Below are positions 1,159-62,031 of a stretch of 64,000 nucleotides of DNA, in pieces. The notes under the pieces are model-generated. The model made no database searches and was not told where the DNA came from. It saw nothing but the letters and a program-made list of their open reading frames with translations. The stretch is from an uncultured Gemmatimonadales bacterium (GTDB lineage: Bacteria > Gemmatimonadota > Gemmatimonadetes > Gemmatimonadales > Gemmatimonadaceae), in assembly GCA_963851265.1 (NCBI GenBank), contig CAWKNZ010000005.1:96001-160000 (forward strand). The letters run 5' to 3'. The translations under genes were made by a program, and so were the position numbers. Every line of letters begins with the position of its first letter. Position 1 is the stretch's first letter.

Positions 1159-3345
1159 ATGACCACTGCGAACGTCGTCTTCCTGATCATCCTCGTGCTC
1201 GCCGCCGGCTTCTTCGCCTACAGCGCGCAGCGGCTCTACGCATTCGCCACCGGCGTCGGCAAACCCGAGGACCGCACGAACGATCCCGGCCGCCGGTTCT
1301 GGAATTTTCTCACCATCGGCCTCGCCCAGACCAAGATCCTGCGCGACCCCGTTGCGGGGGCCATGCACGCGCTCGTGTTCTGGGGCTTCTGCGTGATCAC
1401 GGCGGGCACGGCCGAGATGATGGTGCAGGGCGTGTGGGGCGGCTTCGGGTACGCGAAGTTCCTTCCCGGGCCGGTCTACGGCGCGTTCGCGCTGTCGCAG
1501 GAGCTGTTCGCGCTGCTGGTGTGGGGCGCGGTGAGCTGGCTCATCTACCGCCGGCTCGTGCTCAAGCCGCGGCGGCTGCAGGGCGACGGCGTCGAGACGC
1601 GCGAGGCGGTGATCATCCTCTCGGTGATCGCGGTGCTCATGTTCACGCTGCTGCTGACCAACGCGATGGAGGCGGTGATCGAGCCCGTGATGCGGTCGGG
1701 CACGTCCGGCTACGGCCGCGTCGTCGGTCACCTGTTGGGCCTCGGCCTCGGCCACGTCGTCTCGCCCGAGACGGCGCTCGCGGTGCGCAACGTGAGCTGG
1801 TGGACGCACGCGATCCTCGTGCTCGGCTTCCTCAACTACCTGCCGTTCTCGAAGCACCTGCACGTGCTGGTTTCGCTGCCCAACACGTACCTCAGCAACA
1901 CCGAGGGGCCGGGGCCCAAGGGCGCGATGCGGCCGATGGACCTCGAGGACGAGACGGCCGAGTCGTTCGGCGCGAACGACGTCGAGCAGCTGACGTGGAA
2001 GAACCTGCTCGACGGCTACTCGTGCACGCAGTGCGGGCGCTGCACCGCCGCGTGCCCGGCCAACCTCACCGGGAAGCTGCTGAGCCCGCGCAAGATCGTC
2101 GTCAACGTGCGGCAGCGGTTGATGGAGAAGGCGCCGCTCGTCGTGCACGACTTCGACGAGTTGCGGCACCACCGGCTCGACGGCGGCGAGGGCGCGGACG
2201 GGCTCGCGGCCGAGGGGGGCGCGAAGACCGCGGCCGACATCATGGGCAACACGCTCCTCGACAACTACATCACGGAAGAGGAGCTGTGGGCGTGCACGAG
2301 CTGCCGCGCGTGCGTGCAGGAGTGCCCGGTGAGCATCGACCAGCTCGACGTGATCAACGAGATGCGCCGCTACCTCGTGCTCTCGGAGTCGCGCTTCCCG
2401 GAGCAGCTGCAGCCCGCGTTCACGTCGATGGAGCGCAACGGGAGCCCGTGGGCGTTCTCACCCTCGGTGCGCGAGGAGTGGGCCGAGGGGATGGACATCC
2501 CGACGATGGCCGAGGCCTTCGAGGCGGGCCGGCGGCCCGAGCTGCTGTTCTGGGTCGGGTGCATGGGCTCGTTCGACGACCGCGCCAAGAAGATCACCGT
2601 CGCGTTCGCGCGCGTGCTCAAGGCGGCGGGCGTCGACTTCGCGATCTTGGGGCAGGAAGAGACCTGCCACGGCGACCCCGCACGCCGCATGGGGAACGAG
2701 TACCTGTACCAGACGCTCGCGAAGGGCGCGATCGAGACGTTGGACCGGTACGAGGTGAAGACCGTGGTCACCTTCTGCCCGCACTGCTTCCACCAGATCG
2801 GCAACGAATTCCCGCAGTTAGGTGGGAACTACGAGGTGATCCACCACACCACGTACATCGAGCGGCTGTTGCAGCAAGGGCTGGTGCCGTTGGACACGGA
2901 CGAGGGGAAGCGCCTGACGATGGTCTACCACGACAGCTGCTATCTCGGGCGCTACAACGACGTCTACGACGCGCCGCGCAACACGCTCAAGCGCGCGCTC
3001 CCCGTGGTGAACCTCGTCGAGCCGAAGCGGACGAAGAGTCGTGGGCTGTGCTGCGGCGCGGGCGGCGGGCGCATGTGGATGGAGGAGGACGCGGGCAAGC
3101 GCATCAACGTGGAGCGTACCGAGGAGCTGCTCGCGACGGGTGCGGAGGCGATCGCGCTCGCGTGCCCGTTCTGCATGACGATGATGACCGACGGCGTCAC
3201 GGCGGCAGGGAGCGACGTGCCGGTGCTCGACATCTCCGAGGTGGTCGCGTCGCGGCTCAAGGGAAGCGCGACGGCGGCGCTCGCGCCCGGCGGCGGGGCG
3301 GACGCGGGCGGCGCGAACGCCGGGCTTGCGATGGCCGGCGACTGA
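1159..3345 (+). CDS. Membrane-anchored Fe-S oxidoreductase (FadF/GlpC/HdrD-like; TM domain + 4Fe-4S + CCG domains)
   Basis: N-terminal TM helices; [11 protein letters not shown] and [11 protein letters not shown] ferredoxin motifs; YHDSC..LGR, CCGAGGG and ACPFC CCG-domain motifs. Confidence 0.88.
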
Positions 3346-3430
3346 CGCGGCACACGGTGTGACTCGCACGGGAGGGCGCCGCTCGCGGAGTGGCGCCCTT
3401 CATCGCGTATCTCCCTTGCGAGGTGTTCTG

Positions 3431-3955
3431 ATGGCAGACCAGGCGAAGAACCAGGGCGGGAACGACGCCGCCGACGAGCGGCAGAACGAGCCCCGGCAGG
3501 GCATTCCGGGCAAGGGCTTCGACGCCGGCACCGGCTACGGTGGGGGCGGCAACGACTCGCTGTACGACGCCGAATCCAGCTACGGCGGGCAGAGCGGGAT
3601 CGGCGGCAGCCGCACGCGTGGCGCGTACGCGGGCGAGGGGTACGGGCGCTCGGGCCCGGGCGAGGAGGCGAGCGCGGGCGGGCCGAGCGGTGGCGAAACG
3701 GACGTCAGCGACGACGCGATGGATGGCGGGTCGAACGTGGCGCGCGACACCGACGGGCGTGGCAGCGCCAACGACTCGAGCGACGCGCCGGCCGACCCCG
3801 ACGTCGAGGCCGTGACGGACGCGTTCGAAGGGCAGGGCGCCTCGACCTCCGCGTCGTCCGACGATATGCCCGCCAGCGGCCTGTCCCAGGACGGGCCCGA
3901 CGCGATCGATCTCGACGACTTCTCGGGCGGGAGCCGGCGCGAGCCCGGGCGCTGA
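3431..3955 (+). CDS. Hypothetical acidic Gly/Asp/Ser-rich low-complexity protein
   Basis: ATG 3431 preceded by a GAGGTG RBS; composition typical of a disordered protein. Confidence 0.7.
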   Translation: MADQAKNQGGNDAADERQNEPRQGIPGKGFDAGTGYGGGGNDSLYDAESSYGGQSGIGGSRTRGAYAGEGYGRSGPGEEASAGGPSGGETDVSDDAMDGGSNVARDTDGRGSANDSSDAPADPDVEAVTDAFEGQGASTSASSDDMPASGLSQDGPDAIDLDDFSGGSRREPGR

Positions 3956-3979
3956 CCACGCGGCCCGCGGGGGCGGTGG

Positions 3980-4669: not shown

Positions 4670-6078
4670 GCGCCCTCGTACGACGGCTGCGCCGCGCACG
4701 CGAACGGGTCGCCCGCGAGCGCGTCGCCGCCTAACGGCAGCACTCGGACGGCCGCCCCGGCGGGCAGCGCGCGCACGCCCGCGGGCACCACGGCGAGCGC
4801 GTCGGCCGCGGCCACCGACGACAGCAGCCCGGAGCCTTGCGGCCCGGTGAGCCGCGCGACGAGCCCGCCCCCGTCGTCGGTGTCGAGCGTCGCGCGCAGG
4901 AAGTGCGTCAGCGGCGCCGCGGTGCGCAGCGGCTCGCCCAGGGTGGCGCGCAGGGTGCGCCGGAACGGGCGCGCGTCGCCGGCGAGCGCGCGCAGCAGCG
5001 GGCGCACGAACAGGCCGAAGGTGACGACCGTCGACACCGGGTTCCCCGGCAGGCCGAACCAGGGCACGCCCGACTCGGCAGGCTCCGCGCCGTCGCGGGG
5101 CGGCAGCGTGCCGAAGGCGAGCGGCCCGCCGGGGCGCATCCGCACGCGCCAGAACCCGAGGGCGCCGCCGAGGGCGGCGATGGCGGGGCGGACGAGGTCG
5201 CGCGGGCCGACGCTCACACCGCCCGTGGTGAGCAGCACGTCGCACCCGGCGTCGCGCGCCTCGGCGATGCGGCCCCGCACGCCGTCGGGCGTGTCGGGCG
5301 CGATGCCGTAGTCGACCGGCTCGCCCCCCGCGGCCCGCACGAGCGCGGCGAGCGCGTACGCGTTCGCGTTGACGATCGCGGCGCCGTCGCGCGCGCGCTC
5401 GTGGCCGACGCCGCCGGGCGCGACGTCGGCGAGATCGACGAGTTCGTCGCCCGATGCCACGATCGCGACGCGCGGGCGGCGCGCGACCACGACGTGCGAC
5501 GCCCCGGCCGCCGCGAGCAGCCCGACCACGCCGGGCGTCACGGCCGTTCCCGCGGGTGCGGCCACGGTGCCGGCGCGCAGGTCCTCACCCGCGGGACGCA
5601 CGTTGCGCCGCGCCACCCCACCCGCCGTCTCCTCCTGGCGCGCGTCCCGGTCGTCGCGCACGAGCACGGCGTCGGCGCCACCCGCGTCGGCCGCGGGTGC
5701 CGTGTCCTCGACCCGCACCACCGCGTCGGCCCCGTCGGGCACCGGCGCGCCCGTCGCGATCCGCACGGCCTCGCGTGCGCCTAACGTACCGTCCCAGCGC
5801 GCGCCCGCGGGCGCGTCGCCGACCACCCGCAGGCGGACGGGCGCGCCGGGAGCCGCGCCGGCGACGTCGGCGGCACGCACCGCGTAGCCGTCCATCGCGG
5901 CGTTCGCCCAGGGCGGCACGTCCCACCCCGCCCGCACGTCGGCGGCGAGGACGCGGCCGAGTGCGTCGGCGAGTGCGAGGTGCTCGGGGCCTAACGTACG
6001 CGCGCCGGCGAGGACCGCGGCGAGCGCCTCGTCGACCCCGAGGCGTTCGCGGGCGGTCGGGTGTCGCGACCCGCTCAC
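4666..6078 (-). CDS. moeA: Molybdopterin molybdotransferase MoeA
   Basis: AAMDGYAV, RIATGAPVP, SGDEL, TTGGVSVG and GLPGNPVS motifs. Confidence 0.93.
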   Translation of the reverse strand: MSGSRHPTARERLGVDEALAAVLAGARTLGPEHLALADALGRVLAADVRAGWDVPPWANAAMDGYAVRAADVAGAAPGAPVRLRVVGDAPAGARWDGTLGAREAVRIATGAPVPDGADAVVRVEDTAPAADAGGADAVLVRDDRDARQEETAGGVARRNVRPAGEDLRAGTVAAPAGTAVTPGVVGLLAAAGASHVVVARRPRVAIVASGDELVDLADVAPGGVGHERARDGAAIVNANAYALAALVRAAGGEPVDYGIAPDTPDGVRGRIAEARDAGCDVLLTTGGVSVGPRDLVRPAIAALGGALGFWRVRMRPGGPLAFGTLPPRDGAEPAESGVPWFGLPGNPVSTVVTFGLFVRPLLRALAGDARPFRRTLRATLGEPLRTAAPLTHFLRATLDTDDGGGLVARLTGPQGSGLLSSVAAADALAVVPAGVRALPAGAAVRVLPLGGDALAGDPFACAAQPSYEGA

Positions 6079-6115: not shown

Positions 6116-7902
6116 TCACCGTCGTGCCGCCGCCGCCGCCGGGCCGCGCGCGCGCAACATCGCGATCCGCAACGCGATCGCGTCCTGCACGCGCGTCACC
6201 GCGGCCGACGGCGCCGTGTAGTTGTTGCAGAGCACCGAGAAGATCACCAGCTCATCGTCCGCGGTCGTCGCGTAGCCGGACAGACTGCGCACGCGGTCGA
6301 CGGATCCGGTCTTCGCCCTCACGCGCCCGGCCGCGGGCGTGCCGCGCAACCGTCCCGCGAGCGTGCCGTCGACTCCCGCGATCGGCAGGGCATCGGGGAA
6401 CGTGCCGTCCGACAGTCGGCGCGCCTCGTCGAGCACGCGCACGAGCGCCCGCGGGGTCACGAAGTCGTGGCGCGACAGCCCGCTGCCATCGCGCACGACC
6501 GCGTCGCGCTCGGGCTCGACGCCCCACGCGCGCAGACGGTCGCCGACCACGCGCCGCGCGCTGTCGCCCGACGCCGACCCGGCCCCCACGCGCCCTAACG
6601 TCAGGAAGAGCGCCTCGGCGATCTGGTTCTGCGACGGCTTCTCCATCGCCGGGAGCACGTCGCGGAGCGGGGCCGAGGTGATGACGGCGAGGGTGTCGAG
6701 CGGCGGGGGCGCGGGCGCGCACCCGTCACGACAGCGCGCGTCGGCGGTTGCGCCGCGCGCGTGCCGCCCCTGCCGCAGCGTGCCCTGCGGTGGCGCGTCC
6801 TGCACCGCGACGCCGCGGGCGCGGAGCGCGTTGCGCAACGCGCCCGCGTACGCGCGCCGCGGGTCGTGGATCCCGAGTTCCAGCACCACGCTGTCGTTCG
6901 CCGGTATCGCGCCGCGGAACGCGTAGCGACGCGCGTCGTAGTCCCAGCGTGCCTGCACCGCCGGTCCGGCCGTGGTGCCCGCCGCGATGGTGCGGACGTC
7001 GACCGGGTACTCGTCCACCGGTACGGCCGAGGGGGTCGGGCGGACCGCCACGTGCGCGCCCGCGCCAACCCGCGGACCGCCGAACACGACGGCGCGCGCC
7101 ACGCCGTCGTTGAACAGCAACTCCGTCACGCCCGCGCCCGACGGCGTGTCGAGGTCGTCCCACTCCCACCCGAACTTCCAGGGGCCTTCCGCCCACGGGC
7201 CCTCCGCCCACGGGCCTTCCACTCGCGGGCCCGCTGCCGACGGGTCCCCTGGCCGCCCGCCCGCGGCCGGCGCCTGCGCCGAGGACCCGTCCGACGCGAC
7301 GACGTCGCCCGTGACGCGGCGGATGCCGCGCGCCCACACCGAGTCGGCGAGGGCCCGGATCGGCCCCATCGCGTCGCCGTGCTGCATCGCGGCGCTCACC
7401 GTCGGGTCGCCGCTCCCGAGCACGTAGAGGTCGCCCTGCAGCGTGCCGTTCGGGCGGGCCGCGCCGCGCGCCGCCGCGACCGCCGTGCGCCAGCGGTACT
7501 CCGGCCCGAGGTTCGCGAGAGCGACCGCGCCGGTGATGATCTTCTGGTTCGACGCCGGGATGAAGAGCTTGCCCGCGTTGCGCGCGTAGAGCGTGTCGCC
7601 GGTGCGCGGGTTGACGACGAGCACCCCCCACTGCGCGCCCGCCCACTGCGGGTCGGCGAGCAGCGAGTCGATACCGGCTGCGAGCGCCGCGGGGGAGTCG
7701 GCCGCGTCGGGCGACTGCGATGCGTTAGGCGCGATACGGGCGCCGGGGACGCTCGGCCCGACCGGTGCGGCCGCGGGTCGCGGTCCGGCCGCCGGCGCGC
7801 CGGCTCGCCCCGCGCAGGCGCGCACGCCACGGCCGCGCACGCCGCGGCCCCCGCGGCCATCAACGCGCCGCGCACGCCGCCGGCCGCGCGACGAAGCGTC
7901 AT
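6116..7902 (-). CDS. dacB: D-Ala-D-Ala carboxypeptidase/endopeptidase PBP4 (likely frameshift near the 5' end)
   Basis: SxxK (ASNQK), SxN (SQN), DGSGLSR and KTG motifs in ORF 6116..7840. An ATG at 7902 coupled to the queD stop encodes a lipoprotein-like signal in another frame. Confidence 0.88.
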
Positions 7903-9072: not shown

Positions 9073-9834
9073 TCAGCGGTGGAACTGGTACGACACGCCC
9101 GCGGTGAACGCGGTGTTGTTGCGGTATCGCGAGAGCGCGGCGTTGGACGGGACGATCGACGAGCTGTCCGGCGCGACGCCGCCGTACGTGGCCCCGTACC
9201 CGGTGGAGGGCCGCGCGTACGCCGCCGGATACCGCACGCGATAGAGCGAGTTGCCGAGGTCGAAACGGAGCGCGTAGCGCGACGTCGGCGACGGCACGTA
9301 CTTCAGCGCGAGGCCGTACGCGAGTGCAAACGAGGTGCCGAAGTCGAACCCGCCGGGGTCGGTCCCGCCGAAGTTGGTGACCACGCCCGCGCCGACGTGC
9401 ACGAGCGGCACGAACCCGTGAAACGTGCGGGACCCGGTGAGCGCGAGCGAAAGGCCGAGGTCGGCCATCGTCAGCGGCCGCTTCTCGGTACCGAGCACGC
9501 GGTCGTTGGCCGGGCGCGCGGGGTCGAGCACGGTGCGATCCGAGAACACGGTGCGCACGCGGGTCGTGAAGATCGCCGGGCCGCCACCGAGGTCGTACTG
9601 CAGCCCGACGAGCCCGCCGCCGCGCGGCGCGACCCCGGCCGGATCCTTGGCCGCGTTGAAATAGCCGCCGAGCAGCGTGAACGACTGATTGTAGACGAGG
9701 TCCGCGAAGGGCGAGCGTGCCGGCGGATAGCCGATCTCGCCGCCCCCCGTCGGCGTTCCCTGCGCGGCGGCCGAGCCCGCGGACCCGCCGACCGTCAACG
9801 CGCCGAGCACCCCGACGCCTAACACGAACCGCAT
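9073..9834 (-). CDS. Putative outer-membrane beta-barrel protein
   Basis: Signal peptide from ATG 9834, amphipathic beta-strands, C-terminal 'TAGVSYQF' barrel signature. Confidence 0.7.
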   Translation of the reverse strand: MRFVLGVGVLGALTVGGSAGSAAAQGTPTGGGEIGYPPARSPFADLVYNQSFTLLGGYFNAAKDPAGVAPRGGGLVGLQYDLGGGPAIFTTRVRTVFSDRTVLDPARPANDRVLGTEKRPLTMADLGLSLALTGSRTFHGFVPLVHVGAGVVTNFGGTDPGGFDFGTSFALAYGLALKYVPSPTSRYALRFDLGNSLYRVRYPAAYARPSTGYGATYGGVAPDSSSIVPSNAALSRYRNNTAFTAGVSYQFHR

Positions 9835-9872: not shown

Positions 9873-11474
9873 TCACGCGCCGACGCCCGCCGGCGCGCGC
9901 AGCGCGCGCCCCGTCATCTCGGCAGGCTGCTCGAGCCCGAGCAGCTGCAGCACCGTCGGCGCGATGTCGCAGAGCGCGCCCGTGACGGCCCCGCTGGGGC
10001 CGCCGGGGCCGCCGGGGCCGCCGGCGAGCGGCGCGTCGCCGTCGGGGTCGACGACGACGAACGGGACGGGGTTGGTGGTGTGGGCCGTGTGCGGGCCGCC
10101 GGTCTCGGGATCGATCATCAGTTCGCAGTTGCCGTGGTCGGCGGTCACGAGGAGGCGCGTGCCCGACTGCTCCGCTGCCGCGACGATGCGCGCGAGGCAC
10201 TCGTCGACCACCTCACACGCGCGGATGGTGGCCGGGAGCGAGCCCGAGTGGCCCACCATGTCGCCGTTGGCGAGGTTGCAGAGCATGAACTCGTGCGCCC
10301 GCGACGTGATCGACTTGGTGAGCACGTCGGTCACGCCGCGCGCGCTCATCTCGGGCGCGAGGTCGTACGTCGCCACCTTCTGCGACGGCACGAGGATGCG
10401 CTCCTCGCCGGGGTACGGCGGCTCGTTGCCGCCGTTGAAAAAGTAGGTCACGTGCGGGTACTTCTCGGTCTCGGCCGTCTTGAGCATCGTACGCCCGGCG
10501 TCGCTCAGCACCTCGGCGATGATGCGCGCCATCGACTGCGGCGGGAACGCGGCGCGCACGCCGATCGCCTCCATCGTCGGGTCGTACACGGTCGTCGTCA
10601 CCACCATGAGGCGCGGCCGGCGCGACACGTCGAAGCCGTCGAACGCGGGGTCGGCGAGCGCGCGCACGATCTGCCGCATGCGGTCGCTGCGGTAATTCCA
10701 GCAGATCACCGCGTCGCCGTCGCGCATGGGTGCCACCGGCCGGCCGTCCGCGTCGACCACCGCCATCGGCAGGATGAACTCGTCGGTGGTCCCCGCGTCG
10801 TACGCCTGCCGGATCGCCTCGACCGGGTCCGTCGTCGTCGGCCCGGTGCCGTCGACGGCCGCGCGGTACGCGAGCTCGACGCGCGGCCACCGCTTGTCGC
10901 GATCCATGCCGTAGTAGCGGCCGCCTAACGACGCGACGACGGCGCGCCCGCCGGCGGCAGCCAGGGTCTCGCGCATGTACCCGAGCGCGCTCTTGGGCAG
11001 CGTGTCGCGCCCGTCGAGCATCGCGTGGATCGCCACGCGCGGCACGCCGCGCCGCGCGGCGAGGTCGATGAGCGCGAACAGGTGCCGGTCGAGCGCGTGC
11101 ACGCCGCCGGCGCCCAGCAGGCCGAGCAGGTGCAGCGTGCCGCCGTTGCCGCGCACCTGGTCGCACGCCGCGACGAAGGCCGCGTTGTCGAAGAACGTGC
11201 GGTCCTCGATCGCGGCCGTGATGCGCACCATGTCCTGCATCACCACGCGCCCGGCGCCGAGATTGAGGTGGCCGACCTCGCTGTTGCCCATCTGCCCGTC
11301 GGGGAGCCCCACGCGGCGGCCCGAGGCGTGGAGGAGGGTGCGCGCGCGCCGCCGCCACAAGGCGTCCCACGTCGGCGTGTTGGCCAGCGCGATGGCGTTC
11401 CCCTCGCGCTCGGCGCGGTACCCCCAGCCGTCGAGGACGACGAGGGCGACAGGTCGGGATCGGGGGTCGGGCAT
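9873..11474 (-). CDS. gpmI: 2,3-bisphosphoglycerate-independent phosphoglycerate mutase
   Basis: LDGWG, QMGNSEVGH, GRYYGMDRD, ETEKYPHVT, DMVGH and ADHGN motifs. Confidence 0.97.
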   Translation of the reverse strand: MPDPRSRPVALVVLDGWGYRAEREGNAIALANTPTWDALWRRRARTLLHASGRRVGLPDGQMGNSEVGHLNLGAGRVVMQDMVRITAAIEDRTFFDNAAFVAACDQVRGNGGTLHLLGLLGAGGVHALDRHLFALIDLAARRGVPRVAIHAMLDGRDTLPKSALGYMRETLAAAGGRAVVASLGGRYYGMDRDKRWPRVELAYRAAVDGTGPTTTDPVEAIRQAYDAGTTDEFILPMAVVDADGRPVAPMRDGDAVICWNYRSDRMRQIVRALADPAFDGFDVSRRPRLMVVTTTVYDPTMEAIGVRAAFPPQSMARIIAEVLSDAGRTMLKTAETEKYPHVTYFFNGGNEPPYPGEERILVPSQKVATYDLAPEMSARGVTDVLTKSITSRAHEFMLCNLANGDMVGHSGSLPATIRACEVVDECLARIVAAAEQSGTRLLVTADHGNCELMIDPETGGPHTAHTTNPVPFVVVDPDGDAPLAGGPGGPGGPSGAVTGALCDIAPTVLQLLGLEQPAEMTGRALRAPAGVGA

Positions 11475-14299: not shown

Positions 14300-14350
14300 G
14301 CGCGTCGCGTTAGGCGAATCGCGCTGCGCGCGACCGGGGCGCGTCGTCGT

Positions 14351-28586: not shown

Positions 28587-28673
28587 GGCGGCGCGCAGGG
28601 GATTAGTGTCATTCTTCGCTGCGCGCAGGACGACAGTCCTCGCAGCGTCGATGCGCCCGTGGCCCTCGCCTTC

Positions 28674-34414: not shown

Positions 34415-34445
34415 GCGTGCGGCGGTCGGCGCGGCGCGGCGCGTC

Positions 34446-47979: not shown

Positions 47980-50025
47980 ATGTCCCGCGCATCCGCGCTG
48001 ACGGCACTCGTTCACCTCGCCGGTTTCGGCACGGGCGCGGCGCTCTACGCGATGCTCGGCGTGATGGCCGTGCGGAGCGCGCCGCGTTCGTCGGCGCGCG
48101 GCGATCGCCTGCCGATCGCGACCGCCCTCCTCGGCGTCGCGTGGAACGCGGGCGCGCTCGTGCTCTACTCGCTGCACGACCTCGCCCTCGCGCCGGTGAT
48201 GCATGCGGGGCCGTGGTTCACCGCGCTCGGCGTCGTCGCGTTCGCGGCGCTCGGGTTCCTGCCCGCGGTCGCCGTGCAGGCGGCGGCGCAGCCCATCCCG
48301 CGCGCATTCCGCCGCTGGCTCGTGGGCGCGGCCTACGCGCTGAGCGCCGCGGCCGCGGTGCAGCACGCGTGGGCCGGCGTGGCCACCGACACGGTGCCGT
48401 CGCGCGCCGCGCTGCTCACACTCACCGTCGGCTACGTGGCGTCGCTGCCGGTGCTCGCGTTGGCGCTCCGCGGGCGCCCCGGCGGGCGGGCGCCGTTCGT
48501 CGCGGCCGCCCTCGCCGCCTTCGCGGTCGCCGCGCTGCACCTGCGACATCACACCGCGGGCGAGTCACTCGCCGCGCACGTGCTCGGCGACCACGCGTCG
48601 CTGCCGCTCGCGCTCGTGGTCCTCTACCAGGACTATCGCGTCGCGTTCGCGGACCTGTTCCTCAAGCGTGCACTCGCCGCGCTCGCGCTCGTCGTGTACG
48701 CGGTCGTCGCGTACCTCGTCGTCGTCGTGCCGGTCGTCCTCCCGCGGCTCGCCGCGAACCCGGCGGACCCGCTCGGGGCCGTGGTCTTGGCGGGCGTCGT
48801 CGGGACGCTGCTCGCGCTCGCGCCGCGCGCGCGGCGTGGAGCGGCGGCCGTCGTCGACCGGGCGATCCTGCACCGACCCGACGCCGTCGTGGCGCGGCGC
48901 GCGCTCGCCGCGGGCATCGCCGAGGCGCAGAGCGCGGAGGCGGTGCTCGATGCCGCGACGGCGCACCTTGCCCCGGCGCTCCCGGCCGGCGCCGTCACCT
49001 GGAAGCGGCGGGACGACGACGCGCACGCACTGGGGCACACGGGCGTGCGCACCGACGCGCGCGGCCGCGAGGCGACGGTCGACGTCCCGACCGCCGACGC
49101 GCCCGGGTACGTCGTGCACGTCGGCTCGCTCCCCGCGGGGCGACGGCTGCTCTCCGACGACCTCGCGCTCCTGGAGTGGGCGGCGCTCCTCGCGGCGCGC
49201 CGCATCGACCTCGTCCGCGTCGCGCACGAACGGTACGAGCGCGAAGCCCGCGAGCGCGAGACGGCGCAGCTGGCGACGGAGGCCGAGTTGCGCGCACTCC
49301 GCGCGCAACTCAACCCGCACTTCCTCTTCAACGCGCTCACCACGATCGGCTACCTCGTGCGGGCCGCGCCCGAGCGCGCGGTCGCCACCGTCTACGACCT
49401 GACCGAGTTGTTGCGCGCCGCCCTCCGGCCGACGACGGGCCACACGGTGCCGCTCGCCGAGGAGCTCGCGATGGTGGACGCGTATCTCGCCATCGAGCGG
49501 GCGCGCTTCGAGGAACGGCTCAGGGTCGTCGTCGACGTGGACGCGGCGGCGCGGGGCGCTTCGGTGCCGCCGCTGCTCGTGCAGCCGCTGGTCGAGAACG
49601 CGGTCCAGCACGGGATCGCGCCGCTCGCCCGCGGCGGCGAGGTGTGCGTGTGGGCCCGCGTCGAGGGGGAGGGCGCGCAGGCGCGCCTGCACGTGCGCGT
49701 GAGCGACACCGGGGCCGGGGCGGACGCGGGACGGCTCGCGGCGCGGCGCGCCGCAGGGTTCGGCCTGCAGAGCGTGGAGCGGCGGCTGGATCGACTCTAC
49801 GGCGCAGCCGCGACATTCCGGTTCACCTCGCGCGCGGGCGACGGAACGACCGTCGCCCTGCACATCCCGCTGACGGCCCCGTCGCTCCCCGCCCGGAGCA
49901 CGTCGCCGGCCGGCGCGCAGTTAGGCGGCGAGGTGCGTGCCACGGCTCCTGCCCGCGCGGCCGATCCCGAGGTGGGCGGGAGTTCGCGCGCGAGTGGCGG
50001 GCGCACGCGGCGGGTCGTCACGTGA
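47980..50025 (+). CDS. LytS/YehU-class sensor histidine kinase with multi-TM N-terminal domain
   Basis: LRAQLNPHFLFNAL H-box, QPLVENAVQHG, DTGAG and GFGL motifs. Confidence 0.92.
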   Translation: MSRASALTALVHLAGFGTGAALYAMLGVMAVRSAPRSSARGDRLPIATALLGVAWNAGALVLYSLHDLALAPVMHAGPWFTALGVVAFAALGFLPAVAVQAAAQPIPRAFRRWLVGAAYALSAAAAVQHAWAGVATDTVPSRAALLTLTVGYVASLPVLALALRGRPGGRAPFVAAALAAFAVAALHLRHHTAGESLAAHVLGDHASLPLALVVLYQDYRVAFADLFLKRALAALALVVYAVVAYLVVVVPVVLPRLAANPADPLGAVVLAGVVGTLLALAPRARRGAAAVVDRAILHRPDAVVARRALAAGIAEAQSAEAVLDAATAHLAPALPAGAVTWKRRDDDAHALGHTGVRTDARGREATVDVPTADAPGYVVHVGSLPAGRRLLSDDLALLEWAALLAARRIDLVRVAHERYEREARERETAQLATEAELRALRAQLNPHFLFNALTTIGYLVRAAPERAVATVYDLTELLRAALRPTTGHTVPLAEELAMVDAYLAIERARFEERLRVVVDVDAAARGASVPPLLVQPLVENAVQHGIAPLARGGEVCVWARVEGEGAQARLHVRVSDTGAGADAGRLAARRAAGFGLQSVERRLDRLYGAAATFRFTSRAGDGTTVALHIPLTAPSLPARSTSPAGAQLGGEVRATAPARAADPEVGGSSRASGGRTRRVVT

Positions 50026-51105: not shown

Positions 51106-53574
51106 ATGCCCGTGCTCCCCGCTTCCGTCCCCACGCCGTCGACCGCGATCATCGCGGCGGCCATCCCTGCTCGTAGCCGAGCACACGCCGCGGTCGCGCG
51201 CATGGCCGGCGACATCGTCGGTACGGTGCGCGACAGCGCGTCGGGCCGCCCGCTCGAAGCTGCCGAAGTCAGCGCGCGACGCGACGGGCAGGTCGTCGCG
51301 AACGCGCAGACCGACGCGTTCGGCCGCTACACGCTGCACAACCTGCCTTCCGGGCACTACGTCGTGTCGGCGCGCTTCATCGGCTTCCGTGCCGGGGACC
51401 GCGCGCTCGACGTGGGCGCCGCCGGGGCCGCGACGCGCAGCGTCGATTTTGCGCTCACCACGGTCGCGACCGCTCTCACCGGGGTCAACATCACCGCGAG
51501 CGCGCCGGTCGCGGTCGACACGCGGACCGGCAACCAGACCTTCCAGCAGAACGAGTACCGCGGCGCGCCGACCAACACGACGTCGCAGATCCTGCAGCAG
51601 ACCATTGCCGGCGCGGCGCGCGCGCCGACGGGCGAGGTGCACATCCGCGGGCAGCACGCCGAGTACACCTACGTCATCGACGGCGTCCCGGTCCCGGCGG
51701 GCATCTCGGGTTCGCTCAACGAGCTCTTCGACCCGCAGGTCGTCAACCAGATCGACTTCATCACCGGCGGGTGGGACGCCGAGTACGGCAACAAGAACGC
51801 GGCGATCGTCGACGTGAAGACGCGGATCCCGGCGGGCGGCTTCCACGCGAACGTCGGCACCTACGCGGGCGCGTTCGACGGCGCCTCGACCGTCGGGAAC
51901 CGCGGGCTCAACGGCCAGTCCGTGAGCGCGAGCACGAACGCCGGCCGCTGGGGGTTCTTCGTCGCGGGGAGCCGGCAGTTCAGCGACATGCGCCGCGAGC
52001 CGCTCGTGTTCGACACGGCCGGCAACAAGTCGCTCAACTTCCACAACGACGGGCGTGACCTGTTCGGCTTCGGCAAGGTGCAGTACACGGCCGGGCCCAA
52101 CGACGTCGTCAACCTCGACGCCAACCTGTCGACGACGAACTTCGCGGTGCCGTACGACTCGACGGGCGGCGTGTTCAGCAACGACCGGCAGCGGGACCGC
52201 AACGCGTTCGTCAACCTGAGCTGGCGCCACCAGTTCGGCGGCGCGGGAGGCGGTGCCGGCGGCGGTGCCGGCGGCGGTGCCGCAGGCGGCCAGGCGTCGG
52301 CGACGTCGACCAACACGAGCTCCACGTCGACGTCGGTCGCGGGCGCGCCGGCCGACTTCTTCGGCGCGGTCTACTACCGACACGGCTCGCTCAACTACTC
52401 ACCAGACCCGCGCGACCAGGCGCAATTCGTGTTCGCGCCGGACACCGTCCCGTACAGTCTCGCCGAGCGGCGCAACTTCGACGCGTACGGCCTCGTCGCC
52501 GCCTACACGGCGCACCCGTTGCGCGAGCTGGAGGTCAAGGTCGGGACCCAGTCGTCGGTCACGCGGGGGCACGAGGACTTCAGCTCGCTCGACAACGCGG
52601 GGAACAGCGGGCCGGGGTCCAATTCCGCGCTCCGCGGGTCGGACGTGGGGGTGTACGCGCAGACGGCGTTCGCCCCCGTAGAGTGGTTCGAGCTCCGCAC
52701 GGGGGTGCGCTACGACGCCCACCGCGCGCCGTTCGCCGGGACGCAGCACCAGCTGAGCCCGCGCGTCCGGCTCAACTTCTTCCCGTCCTCGTCGACGACG
52801 CTCTACGCCTACTACGGGCGCCTCTTCGTCCCGACCAACGTCGAGGACCTGCGCGCGATCACCAGCTCGGCGTTAGGCGATTCCGTGACGCCCAACCCGA
52901 CGCTCCCCGAGCGCGATTCGTTCTACGAAATCGGCGCGGTCCAACGGCTGCCGTTCCTCGGGTCCTCGATCAAGCTCGCCGGCTACCGCAAGAACTCGTC
53001 GCCGGGGATCGACGACAACACCGTGCCGGGGTCGGCGATCACCACCTCGGTGAACATCGCGCAGGTGCGCGTGACGGGAATCGAGAGCGTGGTCGAGATC
53101 CGCCCGCCCGGGCCGTTCTCGGGCTACATCAACGCGTCGCTCAACCACGCGTACGGGCTCGGGCCGGTGACGGGCGGGTTCTTCCCCGTGGTGCCGCCCG
53201 GCGGGTACTTCGACCTCGACCACGACCAGCGACTCTCGCTCGTCGCGAGCGGGTTCTACAGCGCGCGCCACTTCTACGTGAGCGCGACGGGGATCTACGG
53301 GAGCGGACTGACCAACGGCGTGCAGCCGGCCGACTGCGAGTGCCAGTACGGGACGGGGCTGTTCGACTTCAACCGCGGCACCAAGGTCAAGCCGAGCGCG
53401 ATCGTGAACCTCAGCACCGGCTACACGTTCCTGACGCGCGGTGCGGTGGTGCGTCCGGAGCTCTACGTCGAGAACCTGTTCGACAAGACCTACCTGCTCA
53501 AAGGTGCGTTCTTCAGCGGGGCGTCGGTCGGCCGGCCGCGGAGCGTGCAGGTGCGACTGAACATCGGGATCTGA
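51106..53574 (+). CDS. TonB-dependent outer-membrane receptor (start uncertain, 51016-51106)
   Basis: CarboxypepD_reg-like N-domain, plug motifs (HIRG..IDG; ITGGWDAEYG), 'LSPR', 'VENLFDKTY', and C-terminal PRSVQVRLNIGI. Confidence 0.9.
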   Translation: MPVLPASVPTPSTAIIAAAIPARSRAHAAVARMAGDIVGTVRDSASGRPLEAAEVSARRDGQVVANAQTDAFGRYTLHNLPSGHYVVSARFIGFRAGDRALDVGAAGAATRSVDFALTTVATALTGVNITASAPVAVDTRTGNQTFQQNEYRGAPTNTTSQILQQTIAGAARAPTGEVHIRGQHAEYTYVIDGVPVPAGISGSLNELFDPQVVNQIDFITGGWDAEYGNKNAAIVDVKTRIPAGGFHANVGTYAGAFDGASTVGNRGLNGQSVSASTNAGRWGFFVAGSRQFSDMRREPLVFDTAGNKSLNFHNDGRDLFGFGKVQYTAGPNDVVNLDANLSTTNFAVPYDSTGGVFSNDRQRDRNAFVNLSWRHQFGGAGGGAGGGAGGGAAGGQASATSTNTSSTSTSVAGAPADFFGAVYYRHGSLNYSPDPRDQAQFVFAPDTVPYSLAERRNFDAYGLVAAYTAHPLRELEVKVGTQSSVTRGHEDFSSLDNAGNSGPGSNSALRGSDVGVYAQTAFAPVEWFELRTGVRYDAHRAPFAGTQHQLSPRVRLNFFPSSSTTLYAYYGRLFVPTNVEDLRAITSSALGDSVTPNPTLPERDSFYEIGAVQRLPFLGSSIKLAGYRKNSSPGIDDNTVPGSAITTSVNIAQVRVTGIESVVEIRPPGPFSGYINASLNHAYGLGPVTGGFFPVVPPGGYFDLDHDQRLSLVASGFYSARHFYVSATGIYGSGLTNGVQPADCECQYGTGLFDFNRGTKVKPSAIVNLSTGYTFLTRGAVVRPELYVENLFDKTYLLKGAFFSGASVGRPRSVQVRLNIGI

Positions 53575-54780: not shown

Positions 54781-54784
54781 GCGG

Positions 54785-54813: not shown

Positions 54814-54871
54814 TGAGGAGTAGCCGCACCTGGTGGGATCCCACCGCACGGACGTCCGCCCCCGACTCGTG

Positions 54872-57330
54872 ATGACGACCACCGCATCGACTCCGCCCAC
54901 GACCGCAGCGCACTCCGCGCCGGCGTCGGCCGCCCGGATCGTGATCCCGGTGACCGGCATGACGTGCGCCGCGTGCCAGGGGCGCGTGCAGCGCACGCTC
55001 GGCAAGGCCCCCGGCGTCGTGGACGCGGCCGTCAATCTGATGATGGGCAACGCCACGGTCGTCTACGACCCCGCGGCGACCACGCCGGACGCGCTCGTCG
55101 CGGCCATTCAGCGGACCGGCTACGGCGCGGAGCGCCCCGCGCCGGACGTCTCGGCGTTCGACGCGCAGGCCGCGCGCGACCAGGCGCAGGCGGACGAGTT
55201 CCGCGCCCTGCGCACACGCGCCGTGGCGAGCGCCGTGGTCGGCGTGGTCGCGATGGTCGCGTCGATGCCGCTCATGGCCGGCGAGCAGGCGCACGGGGCG
55301 GCGGGCGGCGGAGCGGTCGTCGACCCGTTCATGCGCTGGGCGATGACGGCGCTCACGCCCGCGCTCCGAGGAGCGCTGCCGTGGCTGTACGCGGTGCCAC
55401 CCGGCGCGATCTCGTGGGCCCTGCTGGTCCTCACGCTCGGCGTGATGGCGTGGGCGGGGCGGCACTTCTACACGCGCGCGTGGGCCGCACTGCGGCACCG
55501 CGCGGCCGACATGAACACCCTCGTCGCCGTCGGCACCGGCGCGGCGTTCCTCTACTCGACCGTCGCGACGGTCGCGCCGGGCGTGTTTCGGCGCGCGGGG
55601 CTCGCGCCCGACGTGTACTACGAGGCGGTCGTGCTCATCATCGCGCTGGTCCTGACCGGAAACGCGTTCGAGGCGCGCGCGAAGCGGCAGACGTCGCAGG
55701 CGCTGCGCGCGCTCGCGGCGCTGCAGCCGAAGACGGCGCGCGTCGTGCGGCCGACGCCGGACGGCGCCACGGCCGAGGTGGACGTGCCGGTGGAGAGCGT
55801 GCGCGGCGGCGACGTCGTGGTCGTGCGCCCGGGCGAGCGGGTGCCGGTGGACGGCGAGGTGCTGAGCGGCGCGAGCGCGGTGGACGAGTCGATGCTGACG
55901 GGCGAGTCGCTGCCGGTAGAGAAGGGCGTCGGCGCGCGCGTGATCGGCGGGACCGTCAACCGCACGGGCGCGTTCCGCTACCGCGCGACCACGCTTAGGC
56001 CGCGACTCCGTGCTCGCGCAGATCGTGCAGCTGATGCGCGACGCGCAGGGCACGCGCGCGCCGATCCAGGCGCTCGCGGACCGGATCAGCGCGGTCTTCG
56101 TGCCCGCGGTGATGCTGCTGGCCGCGCTGACGTTCGCGGCGTGGCTCGTCGCCGCGCGCGCGACGGGCGGGGCCGTCGACGGGGCCGCGCTCGTGCGCGC
56201 GATCGCGGCCGCGATCGCGGTGCTGATCATCGCGTGCCCCTGCGCGATGGGACTCGCGGTGCCCACGGCCGTGATGGTCGCCACCGGACGCGGGGCGGAG
56301 TTGGGCATCCTCATCAAGGGGGGCGAGGCGCTCCAGCGCGCGGGCGACGTGACCACGGTGGTGCTCGACAAGACGGGCACCGTGACCGAGGGGCGGCCGA
56401 CCGTGACCGACGTCGTGCTCGCGCCCGGCGTCGTGCTTGGCGCCGCGGCGCTCACCGACGACGCGTTGCTCGCCCTCGCCGCCTCGCTCGAGACGCTGAG
56501 CGAGCACCCGCTCGCCGACGCCATCGTGCGCGCGGCGCGCGCCCGCGGCCTCGCGCTGGCGATCCCCGAGGCGTTCGCGTCGGAGACCGGGCGCGGCGCG
56601 ACGGGCGCGGTCGACGGGCACGGGCTCGCGGTCGGCAACGCGGCGCTGATGACCGGTTGGGCGGTCGACGTCGCGCCGCTCGCGGGCGAGCTGGCGCGAC
56701 TGGCGCGCGAGGGGAAGACGCCGATGTACGTCGCGGTCGACGGGCGGCTGGCCGGCGTGATCGCCGTCGCCGACCCGATCAAGCCGACCACGCGGGCGGC
56801 CGTGGACGGGCTGCGCGCGATGGGGCTGGACGTCGTGATGCTCACCGGCGACCTCCGCCAGACGGCCGAGGCGGTGGCGCGCGCGGCGGGAATCGACCGC
56901 GTGGTGGCCGAGGTGTTGCCCGAGGGCAAGGTGGCCGCGGTGCAGGAGCTTCAGCGGGGGGGGCGCGTGGTCGCGATGGTCGGCGACGGCGTGAACGACG
57001 CGCCGGCGCTCGCGCAGGCCGACGTGGGCATCGCCGTGGGGGGCGGCGCCGATGTGGCGGTCGAGGCGGCCGACGTCGCCTTGCTGCGCGGCGACCTCGC
57101 CGGCGTCGGCCGCGCGGTCGCGCTCTCGCGGCGCACGATGCGCACGATGCGGCAGAACCTGTTCTGGGCGTTCGCGTACAACGTGATCGGCATCCCGGTC
57201 GCCGCCGGCGTGCTCTACCCGCGCGTTCGGCCTGCTGCTGAGCCCCATCCTCGCGAGCGCGGCCATGGCGTTCAGCTCCTTTACGGTCGTGTCCAACAGC
57301 CTGCGCCTGCGCCGGGCGCGGTTCGCCTAA
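54872..57330 (+). CDS. copA: Cu(I)-translocating P1B-type ATPase (two +1 frameshifts at ~55994 and ~57222)
   Basis: GMTCAAC HMA domain, [25 protein letters not shown], and MAFSS after frame correction; TAA at 57328-57330. Confidence 0.92.
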
Positions 57331-57348
57331 CACACGACGCCCCGGACC

Positions 57349-57774: not shown

Positions 57775-57778
57775 CGGC

Positions 57779-59314
57779 GTGCGCCGTGTCCCCTCGGGCG
57801 CGTGCGGCCTCGGGCGCGTCGTCCCGCTCGCGGCGCTGGTCCCGTCCGTCCTCGCCGCGGCGCCGCTCGCCGGTCAGCAGCCCCCGCCGCGCCGCCCGGC
57901 CGACACGACCGACGCCATGGCCGGGATGACGATGCCCGGCATGGCCACGCCCGGAACGGGCATGGCCGGCATGACCATGCACGCGCGCGATCCGCTCGGC
58001 GTGTCGATGGACCGCATGGGGTCGGGCACGACGTGGATCCCCGACGCGGTCCCGCTGCCGTCGTACATGACGTCCGCCGGCTCGTGGGACCTCATGGCGC
58101 ACGGCTTCGTCTTCGGCCAGTACGACGCGCAGGGCGGCCCGCGCGGCGGGCGCCAGTTCGGCTCCCTCAACTGGGGGATGTTCATGGCCTCGCGCGAACT
58201 CGGGGGCGGGCGCTTCCAGGCGCGCACGATGCTCAGCCTCGACCCGGCCACCGTGACCGGCCGCGGCTACCCGCTGCTCCTGCAGAGCGGCGAGAGCTAC
58301 GACGGGCAGCCGCTGCACGACCGGCAGCACCCGCACAACTTCTTCATGGAGCTCGGCGCGCTGTACGAGCGGCCGATCACCCGGACGTTAGGCATCTCGC
58401 TCTACGCCGCGCCGTCGGGCGAGCCGGCGCTCGGGCCGGTCGCCTTCATGCACCGCCCGTCGGCGATGGACGTCCCCACCGCGCCGCTCGGCCACCACTG
58501 GCAGGACGCGACGCACACCAGCTTCGGCGTGCTCACGGCCGGGCTCTTCACGCACGCGCTGAAGCTGGAGGCCTCGGCGTTCAACGGCCGCGAGCCCGAC
58601 CAGCACCGCTACGGCATCAACCCCATCCGCCTCGACTCGTACGCGGGGCGCGTCACCGTCAACCCGTCGGGCGCGTGGAGCCTGAGCGGCAGCTACGGCT
58701 ACCTGCGCAGCCCCGAGGCGTTGCACCCGGACGAGTCGATCCACCGCCTCGACGCCTCCGCGATGTACGGCGCGCGGCTGGGTGCCGACGGGCAGTGGGC
58801 GACCACCGTCGTCTGGGGCGCCAACCGGTACGCCGCGCAGCCCGGCCTCTCGCACAGCGGACTGCTCGAGTCGGAGGCGGTGCTCGACGCGCGCAACACC
58901 GTGTTCGGCCGCGCCGAGGTCGTGCAGAAAGGGGTCGAGGACCTCGCGCTCGACGCCGTGGCCGGCGCCCCGGCCGCCGCTTCGCTCCCAACCGCAACGC
59001 CCACCACCGCGGGGCTGCTGCCGAGCGCGACGCCGCCGGACGCCCGCTACACCGTCGGCGCGCTCTCGCTCGGCTACATCCGCGAACTCGGCCGCGTGCG
59101 CGGCGTCACGTTCGGACTCGGGGGGATGGGCACGATCAACGTGGTGCCCGCCTCGCTGCGCGGAGCGTACGGGTCGCGCACGCCCGTGGGCGGGATGGTG
59201 TTCGGCCGCCTCCGGCCGACGTGGCGCCGCGCGGCGGGCGCGCATGATGCGCACGACGGGATGCCGGGGATGGAGGGCATGGTGCACCACGGGGAGCATC
59301 GCGGGGGCGCCTGA
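57779..59314 (+). CDS. Secreted Met/His-rich putative outer-membrane barrel protein
   Basis: Signal peptide; MAGMTMPGM..MAGMTMH N-terminus; MGSGTTW, DRQHPH, HHWQD; His/Met-rich tail. Confidence 0.75.
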   Translation: MRRVPSGACGLGRVVPLAALVPSVLAAAPLAGQQPPPRRPADTTDAMAGMTMPGMATPGTGMAGMTMHARDPLGVSMDRMGSGTTWIPDAVPLPSYMTSAGSWDLMAHGFVFGQYDAQGGPRGGRQFGSLNWGMFMASRELGGGRFQARTMLSLDPATVTGRGYPLLLQSGESYDGQPLHDRQHPHNFFMELGALYERPITRTLGISLYAAPSGEPALGPVAFMHRPSAMDVPTAPLGHHWQDATHTSFGVLTAGLFTHALKLEASAFNGREPDQHRYGINPIRLDSYAGRVTVNPSGAWSLSGSYGYLRSPEALHPDESIHRLDASAMYGARLGADGQWATTVVWGANRYAAQPGLSHSGLLESEAVLDARNTVFGRAEVVQKGVEDLALDAVAGAPAAASLPTATPTTAGLLPSATPPDARYTVGALSLGYIRELGRVRGVTFGLGGMGTINVVPASLRGAYGSRTPVGGMVFGRLRPTWRRAAGAHDAHDGMPGMEGMVHHGEHRGGA

Positions 59315-59330
59315 CGGACCCCGAGCGCGG

Positions 59331-61151: not shown

Positions 61152-61292
61152 GGTGCGCGAAGCTCGCTCGCGCGTCGGGCCGCGGCAACTCGGGCGCGCG
61201 GGAGCGCGTCGTCGTGCGCCGATACCGCCCGTCGCGGGTACATTGAGAGGCTGACGACGCTTCCGTCGCCGGCGTTCTCCCACCGAGTCCGC

Positions 61293-61547
61293 ATGAGCTC
61301 GCAGATCACGGTGACCACCCTGCTGTTCGCCTCGTACGCCGACGCCCTCGGGCGCTCGTCGGTACCCGTGACGCTGCGCGCGCCGGCGACGGTCGGCGCG
61401 CTGCTCGACCACGTGCGCGCGCTGCCCGGCGCCGGGCGGTTGCCGCCCGCGCCGCTCGTCGCCGTGAACGCGGCGTACGCGTCGGCAGGGCACGTGCTGG
61501 CCGACGGCGACGAGGTCGCGCTGATTCCGCCCGTGGCGGGTGGCTGA
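61293..61547 (+). CDS. moaD: Molybdopterin synthase sulfur carrier
   Basis: LLFA, AVN and DEVALIPPVAGG C-terminus. Confidence 0.92.
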   Translation: MSSQITVTTLLFASYADALGRSSVPVTLRAPATVGALLDHVRALPGAGRLPPAPLVAVNAAYASAGHVLADGDEVALIPPVAGG

Positions 61548-62031
61548 CGTGGCCGGCGGTCGGACCGCGATCGTGGAGCGGCCGCTCGAGCCGGCGGCGC
61601 TGCTCGCGGAAGTGGCGGACGCGGGGCACGGGGCGACGGCGCTGTTCGTCGGCACGGTGCGCGAGGTGAACGACGGGCGCCCGGTGACGGGGATCGACTA
61701 CACGGCGTACGAGGCGATGGCCGCGCGCGAGCTGGCCGCGATCGTCGGCGAGGCGGCGGAGCGCTTCGGGACGGCCGAGGGGCCGCCGCGGATCGCCGCG
61801 GAGCACCGGCTGGGGACGTTAGGCATCGGCGAGGCGAGCGTGGCGGTCGCGGCGGCGCACGCGCGCCGCGCGCCGGCGATGGACGCGGTGCGCTACGTGG
61901 TGGAGGAGCTCAAGCGGCGCGTGCCGATCTGGAAGCGCGAGCACTACGCCGACGGCACGCGCGAGTGGCTCGACCCGACGGCCGCGCCCGGGGCGGGCGG
62001 TACGGCCGTTGCCCCAGCCGTGTCCTCGTGA
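61540..62031 (+). CDS. moaE: Molybdopterin synthase catalytic subunit
   Basis: GA...FVGTVR, HRLG and LKRRVPIWKRE motifs. Confidence 0.93.
   Translation: MADVAGGRTAIVERPLEPAALLAEVADAGHGATALFVGTVREVNDGRPVTGIDYTAYEAMAARELAAIVGEAAERFGTAEGPPRIAAEHRLGTLGIGEASVAVAAAHARRAPAMDAVRYVVEELKRRVPIWKREHYADGTREWLDPTAAPGAGGTAVAPAVSS

Follow-up and report, generated by a model that had tools for sequence, protein, structure and literature searches.

Copies of the word in the window

The window analysed in this study is a 64-kb stretch of DNA (contig C5, positions 96001-160000) from the genome of an uncultured Gemmatimonadales bacterium, designated G000 (4.6 Mb, 12 contigs). This soil bacterium belongs to the Gemmatimonadaceae, and its purD has its best relatives in Gemmatimonadaceae and Gemmatimonadales records. 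The study was concerned with a heptamer, GTTAGGC or its reverse complement GCCTAAC, that is dispersed through the genes of the window. Labels beginning with G designate genomes, those beginning with C the contigs of a genome and those beginning with L the loci or contigs sampled. Gene positions were taken from our own codon-model caller of open reading frames (ORFs; 3,681 genes, 87% coding), which is not a standard annotator.

The window contains 23 exact copies, nine GTTAGGC and 14 GCCTAAC on the forward strand, each starting where the original prediction for this DNA had placed it. In 100 dinucleotide shuffles of the window the mean was 1.97 copies (standard deviation 1.25, maximum 5), so the prediction that about five copies would arise by chance was too high. 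Nineteen copies are read as xxG-TTA-GGC, which gives Leu-Gly on the coding strand, as foreseen for most of them. The remaining four were also as predicted: the copy at 7724 is read as GCG-CCT-AAC (Ala-Pro-Asn), those at 34410 and 57325 form stop codons, and that at 14309 is intergenic. The near-copies are GTTAGGT at 2817, GTTAGGG on the reverse strand at 6593 and CTTAGGC at 55994. The gene names held in part, with gpmI and mutM scoring above the NCBIfam cut-offs and moeA, metB (cystathionine gamma-synthase) and moaE being best hits below the cut-off.

Table 1. Exact copies of GTTAGGC/GCCTAAC in the window, with the reading of each copy and the gene that holds it.
Copy	Strand	Reading	Gene or context	Remarks
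4729..4735	-	Pro-Leu-Gly (CCG TTA GGC)	moeA-like, 4666-6078(-)	
5779..5785	-	Thr-Leu-Gly	moeA-like, 4666-6078(-)	
5989..5995	-	Thr-Leu-Gly	moeA-like	210 bp from 5779, second-closest pair in the window
7724..7730	+	Ala-Pro-Asn (GCG CCT AAC), antisense-read	PBP4-like, 6116-7825(-)	
9817..9823	-	Val-Leu-Gly	9073-9834(-)	
10923..10929	-	Ser-Leu-Gly	gpmI, 9873-11474(-)	copy at the orthologous place in G001 and G004
14309..14315	+		intergenic	convergent genes either side
14453..14459	-	Ser-Leu-Gly	kinase-like, 14351-16651(-)	
29099..29105	+	Ala-Leu-Gly	28659-29471(+)	retained in G001, G004 and G304
30040..30046	-	Leu-Leu-Gly	29554-30474(-)	
34410..34416	+	CGT-TAG stop	33878-34414(+)	
35809..35815	-	Ala-Leu-Gly	uvrC-like, 34951-36354(-)	
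36866..36872	-	Ala-Leu-Gly	mutM, 36365-37237(-)	low-count relatives: Arg-Leu-Gly, ordinary Leu codons
38846..38852	-	Pro-Leu-Gly	38705-39727(-)	
39943..39949	-	Ser-Leu-Gly	metB-like, 39775-40959(-)	low-count relatives: Ser-Leu-Gly without the word
42646..42652	+	Ala-Leu-Gly	42182-42940(+)	
43432..43438	-	Thr-Leu-Gly	42964-44427(-)	
43897..43903	-	Ala-Leu-Gly	42964-44427(-)	
49920..49926	+	Gln-Leu-Gly	47980-50025(+)	
52872..52878	+	Ala-Leu-Gly	51202-53574(+)	
57325..57331	-	GCC-TAA stop	frameshifted copper ATPase, C-terminal piece, ORF 57265-57330(+)	
58387..58393	+	Thr-Leu-Gly	57779-59314(+)	
61818..61824	+	Thr-Leu-Gly	moaE-like, 61573-62031(+)	

The copper P-type ATPase gene (window positions 54833-57330) is split over three frames (from 54833, from 56010 and at 57265-57330), possibly through long-read assembly errors, and was overlooked by our ORF caller.

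Genome-wide excess and codon override

G000 as a whole carries 1,762 copies (885 forward, 877 reverse) on all 12 contigs, where an order-3 Markov model expects 126.5, and TTAGG is its top over-represented 5-mer. The full word is an 8-mer, YGTTAGGC: the preceding base is C in 79% and T in 14% of copies (Y in 93%), and the following base shows a weak preference for G or A (R in 76%). The original prediction had missed the 8-mer, as well as the match to the integron attC cores of the host, the exclusion zone and the GC halo described below.

Within the genes of G000 there are 1,286 copies, compared with 36-69 in 20 synonymous shuffles, so the excess stands against the codon-shuffled null that had been set beforehand as the refuting test. 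TTA codons precede GGC in 1,001 of their 1,267 occurrences. In the context xxG-Leu-GGC, 988 of 5,687 leucines are encoded by TTA, compared with 160 of 69,228 in xxG-Leu-nonGly, which agrees with the predicted dependence on the following glycine. The usage rises to 780 of 2,858 in xCG-Leu-GGC and is 272 of 123,434 in other contexts. Recognition is strict, as TTA appears in just 8 of 3,234 places that lack the leading G. The antisense frame xxG-CCT-AAC (Pro-Asn) is occupied at a similar level (197 of 1,113). In addition, 190 copies overlap gene ends, and the density in spacers is 1.44 per kb between convergent, 0.45 between tandem and 0.23 between divergent genes. The word is biased toward core-like genes as judged by GC content at third codon positions (GC3), with 0.13 copies per kb in genes with GC3 of 0.8-0.9 and 0.49 in those above 0.95. 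Word-free gaps reach 13-45 kb.

The word is a signal at the DNA level, and it occupies genes, stop codons and spacers in spite of codon bias. The genome-wide signal that had been predicted is borne out by the use of both coding orientations, stop codons and spacers and by conservation at orthologous places. Chance or a codon effect is ruled out by the window shuffles, the Markov model and the synonymous shuffles, an RNA-level signal by the equal use of both coding orientations, and an assembly artefact by the many genomes, among them that of a finished type strain, that contain the word. No published description of the word turned up in the literature covered, which largely leaves out subscription journals.

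The word also lacks strand polarisation, as predicted. Around the dif-like site at C2:1368953, which itself does not contain the word (so the XerD arm of dif is rejected as its source), Leu-Gly occupancy was 188/1,162 in leading and 108/640 in lagging genes (p = 0.74), whereas GGGNAGGG is skewed there. Together with the use of both coding orientations, stops and spacers, this indicates that the word is read on DNA but not in the manner of Chi or of the FtsK-orienting polar sequence (KOPS). A Chi- or KOPS-like replication or repair signal would be abundant, intragenic and non-palindromic, as the word is, and the word is present in phages, as Chi is in some of them. However, Chi acts on one side and the halo around the word is symmetric, so that we consider such a signal extremely unlikely.

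Origin of the sites and mutual exclusion

When 85 sites of G000 were aligned to low-count genomes, 50 retained Leu-Gly with ordinary codons and only one was gapped, which rules out in-frame insertion of Leu-Gly. Judged from these alignments, the sites are recoded ancestral residues. Where G001 also has [ATPS]-Leu-Gly at a G000 site, the word is kept in 14 of 16 cases, at a four-fold identity of 0.64. At shared sites the four-fold divergence amounts to 0.19-0.53 of the expected value, and it reaches about 1.0 at 8 bp and beyond; no lowering of the mutation rate was seen near the sites.

The copies exclude one another. Among [ATPS]-Leu-Gly places in G000, occupancy was 14/577 when another copy lay within 200 bp, 30/274 at 200-300 bp and 328/1,612 at 300-1000 bp, and the effect holds on either side, in either orientation and across gene borders. 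Inverted pairs closer than 200 bp are likewise depleted, and only six close inverted pairs were found. When occupancy below 200 bp was compared with that at 300-1000 bp in relatives, exclusion was seen in G001 (11/93 vs 69/175), G004 (10/70 vs 57/150), G297 (0/13 vs 12/22), G012 (6/31 vs 13/30), G304 (8/46 vs 30/100) and the plasmids of the cultured Gemmatirosa kalamazoonensis KBS708 (7/77 vs 33/120). It was weak in G240 (11/35 vs 17/46) and G322 (13/34 vs 19/43).

The GC halo

Synonymous codons ending in A or T, adjusted for gene, amino acid and position in the gene, are depleted around the copies. In G000 their ratio to expectation is 0.75 at 10-100 bp (2,714/3,627) and rises to 0.90, 0.96 and 1.04 at 100-200, 200-300 and 300-600 bp, respectively. 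A finer profile decays smoothly from 0.71-0.74 at 20-80 bp through 0.86-0.92 at 100-180 bp to 1.05 beyond 400 bp. The halo is symmetric (0.73 on the 5' and 0.71 on the 3' side). All A/T-ending classes fall, and the choice among G/C-ending codons is unchanged; no selection for better codons was seen near the sites. With decoy words (two sets) and rare A/T codons (three sets) the main classes gave 0.95-1.2. The A/T content of convergent spacers (unadjusted) is also lower near copies than far from them (0.186 vs 0.231). A periodogram of the halo was contaminated by the codons of the site itself and was not used.

The halo follows the site, since it is seen in the genome that owns a copy and not at the same places in a congener or other genome. 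For example, orthologous codons gave 184/237 in G240 compared with 210/208 in its motif-poor congener G293, and private sites of G000, G001 and G004 gave 245/314 in the owner and 479/491 in the other genome (G000 data enter twice). On terminal branches the counts were 144/170 for G/C-to-A/T changes, 831/848 for G/C swaps and 19/16 for A/T-to-G/C changes. The halo is present in two genera, at 0.74 in G001, 0.86 in G004, 0.86 in G240 and 0.85 in G297.

The mutual exclusion of copies up to about 200 bp apart and the symmetric GC halo that moves with the site are new here; in the literature covered, no GC halo is described at uptake sequences, and the nearest account concerns only gene-level GC and recombination. 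Exclusion and halo share one length scale. This common scale, the G/C shift without a general drop in substitution, the symmetry and the strict recognition suggest that a process of the tract type has its centre at the word.

Distribution among relatives, plasmids and phages

Genomes with at least 0.1 YGTTAGGC per kb were designated rich. Ten of 40 relatives were rich, as were 12 of 300 Gemmatimonadota sampled, all within the Gemmatimonadales (0 of 102 outside the order). Both tallies include the unpublished genome G011 as a low-count row, on which no claim rests. Intermediate counts are totals that may include dispersed copies as well as attC arrays, except for the samples of G165 and G211, in which dispersed in-gene copies are present. 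Rich genomes range from 0.1 to 1.4 copies per kb (G012 has the most, 7,189; G001 has 2,524), and the word is patchy across three families. Within one genus, G240 has 4,498 and G297 has 4,831 copies, but G293 has 80. In a FastTree phylogeny of one conserved single-copy gene (27 labelled rows, with three intermediate rows unlabelled) the rich and poor states require six changes, four of them forced by well-supported branches. The KBS708 plasmids carry 166 copies in 200 kb sampled (0.83 per kb; reversed control 10). Results for named strains and for numbered genomes were not treated as independent.

No dialect, that is, no alternative 6-8-mer, was found in samples of 43-92 kb from eight low-count genomes, apart from a word family in G156. 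About 15 members of that family, which centres on CTAGACAG/GACAGCTAG and may be a repeat or a dialect, are present in 80 kb (L157-L160). In G322 (C29, about 89348-89444 of the joined loci L221-L225) there is a tandem array of about nine copies of a 10-bp unit, CCGCGTTAGG, beside mnmE and near dnaA.

The word is also carried by tailed phages. In two scans of viral contigs (122 and 40 loci) most occurrences were chance pairs and attC arrays, and a few contigs had dispersed copies. In phage L318, which has terminase, portal, scaffold and major head genes, 17 kb hold 35 copies, placed in the codon-overriding frames seen in G000. The L318 portal is 44% identical to a relative from a Gemmatimonadaceae genome (with matches in 2 of 201 genomes), which lends some weak support to a Gemmatimonadaceae host. 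A prophage portal at G156:C7:64447-66564 (L403), 44% identical to that of L318, lies about 4 kb from a parS-like site of G156. Six loci classed as viral (L279, L284, L271, L295, L249 and L280) hold attC-like arrays with paired GCCTAAC/GTTAGGC every 300-500 bp. No publication on the density of uptake signal sequences (USS) in phages was found in the literature covered.

The match to integron attC cores

Integron attC sites have a core R' GTTRRRY and an inverse core R'' RYYYAAC. The attC cores of G000 read CGCCTAACG...CGTTAGGCG and those of low-count relatives TGCCTAACG...TGTTAGGCA. Hairpin-forming R''/R' pairs 50-150 bp apart that flank cassette ORFs were found in G000 only in an array at the end of C10 and the start of C6; elsewhere there are about ten scattered attC-like matches, all but one of which pair with a different GTTRRRY word. 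That array (C10:186000-215025 and C6:1-6100) is rich in toxin-antitoxin-like cassettes and insertion sequence copies. An intI gene of G000 scores above the TIGR02249 cut-off at C6:5244-6044. It seems to be cut (C6:5202-6086); a piece of the C-terminal part of an integrase lies at C6:3041-3166, at a distance of about 2 kb.

An integrase, or a host factor that binds the attC/attI core, could act at dispersed single sites through nicking, secondary integration or titration and so maintain them. The word matches the attC cores of G000 and of the order with the same flanks (Y before, R after), and many members of the order have intI (found in 44 of 65 panel genomes). However, rich and poor genomes both carry intI, and none was found in G001 (97% complete), for all its 2,524 copies, nor in G131 or G008, while G012 has just a short frame with the intI N-terminal domain. 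The dispersed copies do not pair as in attC, other GTTRRRY words are not enriched (TTA before GAC 11/2,150, before AGC 2/335), and the Leu-Gly sites were recoded rather than inserted. For these reasons we consider the integron improbable as the cause. A common origin of the specificity of the word and of the attC core is likely from the identity of their sequences, and present-day integrase action is not required.

Methylation

A second explanation follows the ratchet model of Elhai (2015) for HIP1, in which the word is marked by a methylase, and new copies are fixed by methyl-directed mismatch repair where no other copy is near. Under this model copies would exclude each other over the range of repair (PMC4390886, section 3.4, in part), and G000 has MutL. 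It also has a Type IIG-like N6-adenine methylase (Eco57I-like, 1,141 aa) beside an SNF2-like helicase at C7:579717-585511 (L091:5718-11512). The methylase is kept in 58 of 64 panel genomes, mostly once. Its C-terminal region is conserved in rich and poor genomes alike, which speaks against a part in the ratchet, and from its conservation the enzyme looks like housekeeping rather than defence.

The ratchet needs a mark on the word, and none is listed. The methylome of KBS708 from SMRT (single-molecule, real-time) sequencing lists RGATCY, ATGCAC and CCAGN7TCA only (PMC3974934), and GTTAGGC is not among these published motifs, in a comparison with the motif list and not with the raw kinetics (GSE55390), even though the strain carries the word at 0.83 per kb. 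The non-palindromic ATGCAC may be the target of the Type IIG-like methylase. Neither Gemmatimonadota nor a motif of this kind is listed in the supplements of Blow et al. 2016. A C5 methylase was looked for and not found in any of five rich genomes, and Vsr was found in one of five genomes, a low-count one. Four-fold divergence, moreover, is not lowered near the sites. Contigs from sequencing runs, with word shares of 0.18 and 0.05, are uninformative on modification because they come with no raw reads. Thus, methylation-linked repair, offered in the original prediction along with uptake and protein binding, is disfavoured, and the ratchet itself appears very unlikely.

Possible uptake tag or in-cell binder

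The reading we prefer, to which we assign a rough probability of 0.45, is that YGTTAGGC is a tag resembling a DNA uptake sequence (DUS) and drives short GC-biased conversion tracts. A putative receptor would favour short DNA fragments carrying the word, uptake being the step that reads it. When such fragments recombine with the chromosome, the word would become fixed and its surroundings, about 100-250 bp, would be converted toward G/C. The halo would then arise from GC-biased conversion, and the exclusion would follow because one copy per short fragment would suffice. Patchy gain and loss of the reader would give the patchy distribution, and the attC core match may reflect the source of the specificity, e.g. 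capture of cassette DNA.

Several observations are consistent with this reading. First, comEC is present in G000 and in 60 of 61 panel genomes, and pilins are encoded in the host as well as in low-count genomes. Secondly, a stand-alone FimT-like pilin with a C-terminal GRVR-type motif, a motif with a DNA-binding role in FimT, is encoded at G000:C7:452369-452776 (L443:1153-1560) and found in 28 of 30 genomes, which suggests that natural competence is widespread in the order. Lastly, when fragments are short, the peaks of USS uptake are centred on the site, and two sites less than 100 bp apart act as one (PMC7811141, in part), and DUS spacing follows conversion length (PMC2397512, in part).

Other results weigh against an uptake tag. 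No receptor was found among the candidates compared: pilins (5 genomes), FimT (30 genomes), comEC, intI and the conserved methylase are present in both rich and poor genomes. No demonstration of competence in any Gemmatimonadota was found in the literature covered. Conversion fragments in Neisseria measure 573-1,734 nt (PMC2397512, in part), so that tracts of 100-250 bp would be far shorter. The six close inverted pairs are few, unlike DUS terminators, and the tripeptide ratio [ATPS]LG/GL[ATPS] is only 1.31 in G000 compared with 1.24 in low genomes, where DUS and USS double theirs (PMC2817400, in part). The halo is absent in G304 (1.01, 260/258), G322 (0.99, 1502/1512), G012 (1.01, 1244/1236) and six phage loci (0.99, 546/553), is weak in the KBS708 plasmids (0.93, 235/254), and is not visible in a small, repeated set of G000 genes common to low-count genomes (134/132). 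The A/T-to-G/C data (19/28 vs 271/487) are too few to part conversion from shielding. Finally, one phage fragment carries 2.06 copies per kb, denser than any host genome counted, which is less easily explained by uptake than by a process within the cell.

Such a process could be the binding of the word by a nucleoid-type or repair-recruiting protein whose cover or service extends over about 200 bp. A second site within this range would bring no further benefit, and the DNA in it would either be protected from damage toward A/T or be under selection for a high G/C content. This explains exclusion, halo, symmetry and lack of polarity, and it explains the dense phage copies at least as easily as uptake does. 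The poverty of promoter-type divergent spacers and the richness of convergent ones also fit a binder, as does a 45-kb empty stretch of G000 around parS/parAB in which 0 of 65 potential sites are used. That gap is not reproduced, however, with copies 0.6-3.2 kb from parS in G012, G240, G297, G322 and G304. The halo decays smoothly without an edge, pair spacings have no 10-11.5 bp period, and the DUF1931 histone was found in 0 of 5 genomes tested. An essential structural protein would also be ill-suited to loss in the congener G293 and to gaps of 13-45 kb in G000. We regard an in-cell binder as rather unlikely, but as the main rival to the uptake reading.

The word-free stretch (G000:C1:182877-227963) contains mnmG-parA-parB and a variant parS palindrome, TGTGGCACGTGCCACA, which also occurs in G001, G003 and G004. 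A ParB roadblock is rejected, as the gap exists in G000 only and other genomes show at most mild depletion near parS.

A bolder form of the uptake reading, which we hold to be unlikely, is that several Gemmatimonadales lineages independently use a reader of the attC core as uptake receptor. A cassette-harvesting device would have made its recombination site a genome-wide self tag, each copy being a short-tract recombination hotspot and the halo GC-biased gene conversion. If true, GC-biased gene conversion in a bacterium would be visible at single-motif resolution.

Through the GC halo, two old questions can be approached locally and with an internal control: whether drive or selection makes such words accumulate, and whether the high GC content of some bacterial genomes is maintained by conversion, repair or selection. 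By its identity with the attC core, the word may tie the traffic of integron cassettes to natural transformation. The question is testable, since KBS708, a type strain that is in culture and non-pathogenic, carries the word.

Comparison with known systems

The word is not HIP1, Chi, KOPS or attC. It resembles HIP1 (GCGATCGC, cyanobacteria) in being hyper-abundant, codon-overriding, conserved and of debated function, and HIP1 has itself been proposed as an uptake signal (PMC13756078, in part). However, HIP1 is a palindrome with DmtA/DmtC methylation sites (PMC5861425, in part), whereas GTTAGGC differs from its reverse complement and is absent from the methylated motifs of KBS708. Chi (RecBCD/AddAB) and KOPS (FtsK) are also abundant intragenic words of about octamer size, but the Gemmatimonadota word has no replichore polarity and affects its neighbours symmetrically. 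Compared with integron attC, the dispersed word shares every letter, and also the flanks, with the cores of the host and the order, but its copies are single, lie in coding frames without a hairpin partner or cassette, and vary in abundance independently of intI.

The DUS of the Neisseriaceae is read by the minor pilin ComP, and USS are the uptake words of the Pasteurellaceae. Like DUS and USS, the word is short and non-palindromic, occurs about once per 1-3 kb on both strands without polarity, lies in reading frames and gene ends, is conserved at orthologous places (14 of 16 in G001), and has a host that encodes comEC and pilins. It is also scarce in compositionally atypical genes, here by GC3, as DUS and USS are (PMC2397512 and PMC2817400, each in part). 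Unlike them, it belongs to another phylum, is a different word of 7-8 bp, and uses the rarest codon where DUS and USS use preferred ones. It forms few inverted-pair terminators, shows little tripeptide enrichment, is patchy as one word in three families without dialects found, and is dense in phages. The sharp exclusion below 200 bp and the GC halo were not found reported for DUS or USS in the parts of that literature covered. Since two of their usual features failed (terminator pairs and doubled tripeptides) and uptake is only inferred, the word is not classed as a member, yet by this comparison it appears to work most like DUS and USS. Only two families, both proteobacterial, are established as having sequence-specific uptake tags (PMC1939737 and PMC7811141, each in part), and a third system, in an abundant soil phylum, would thus be notable.

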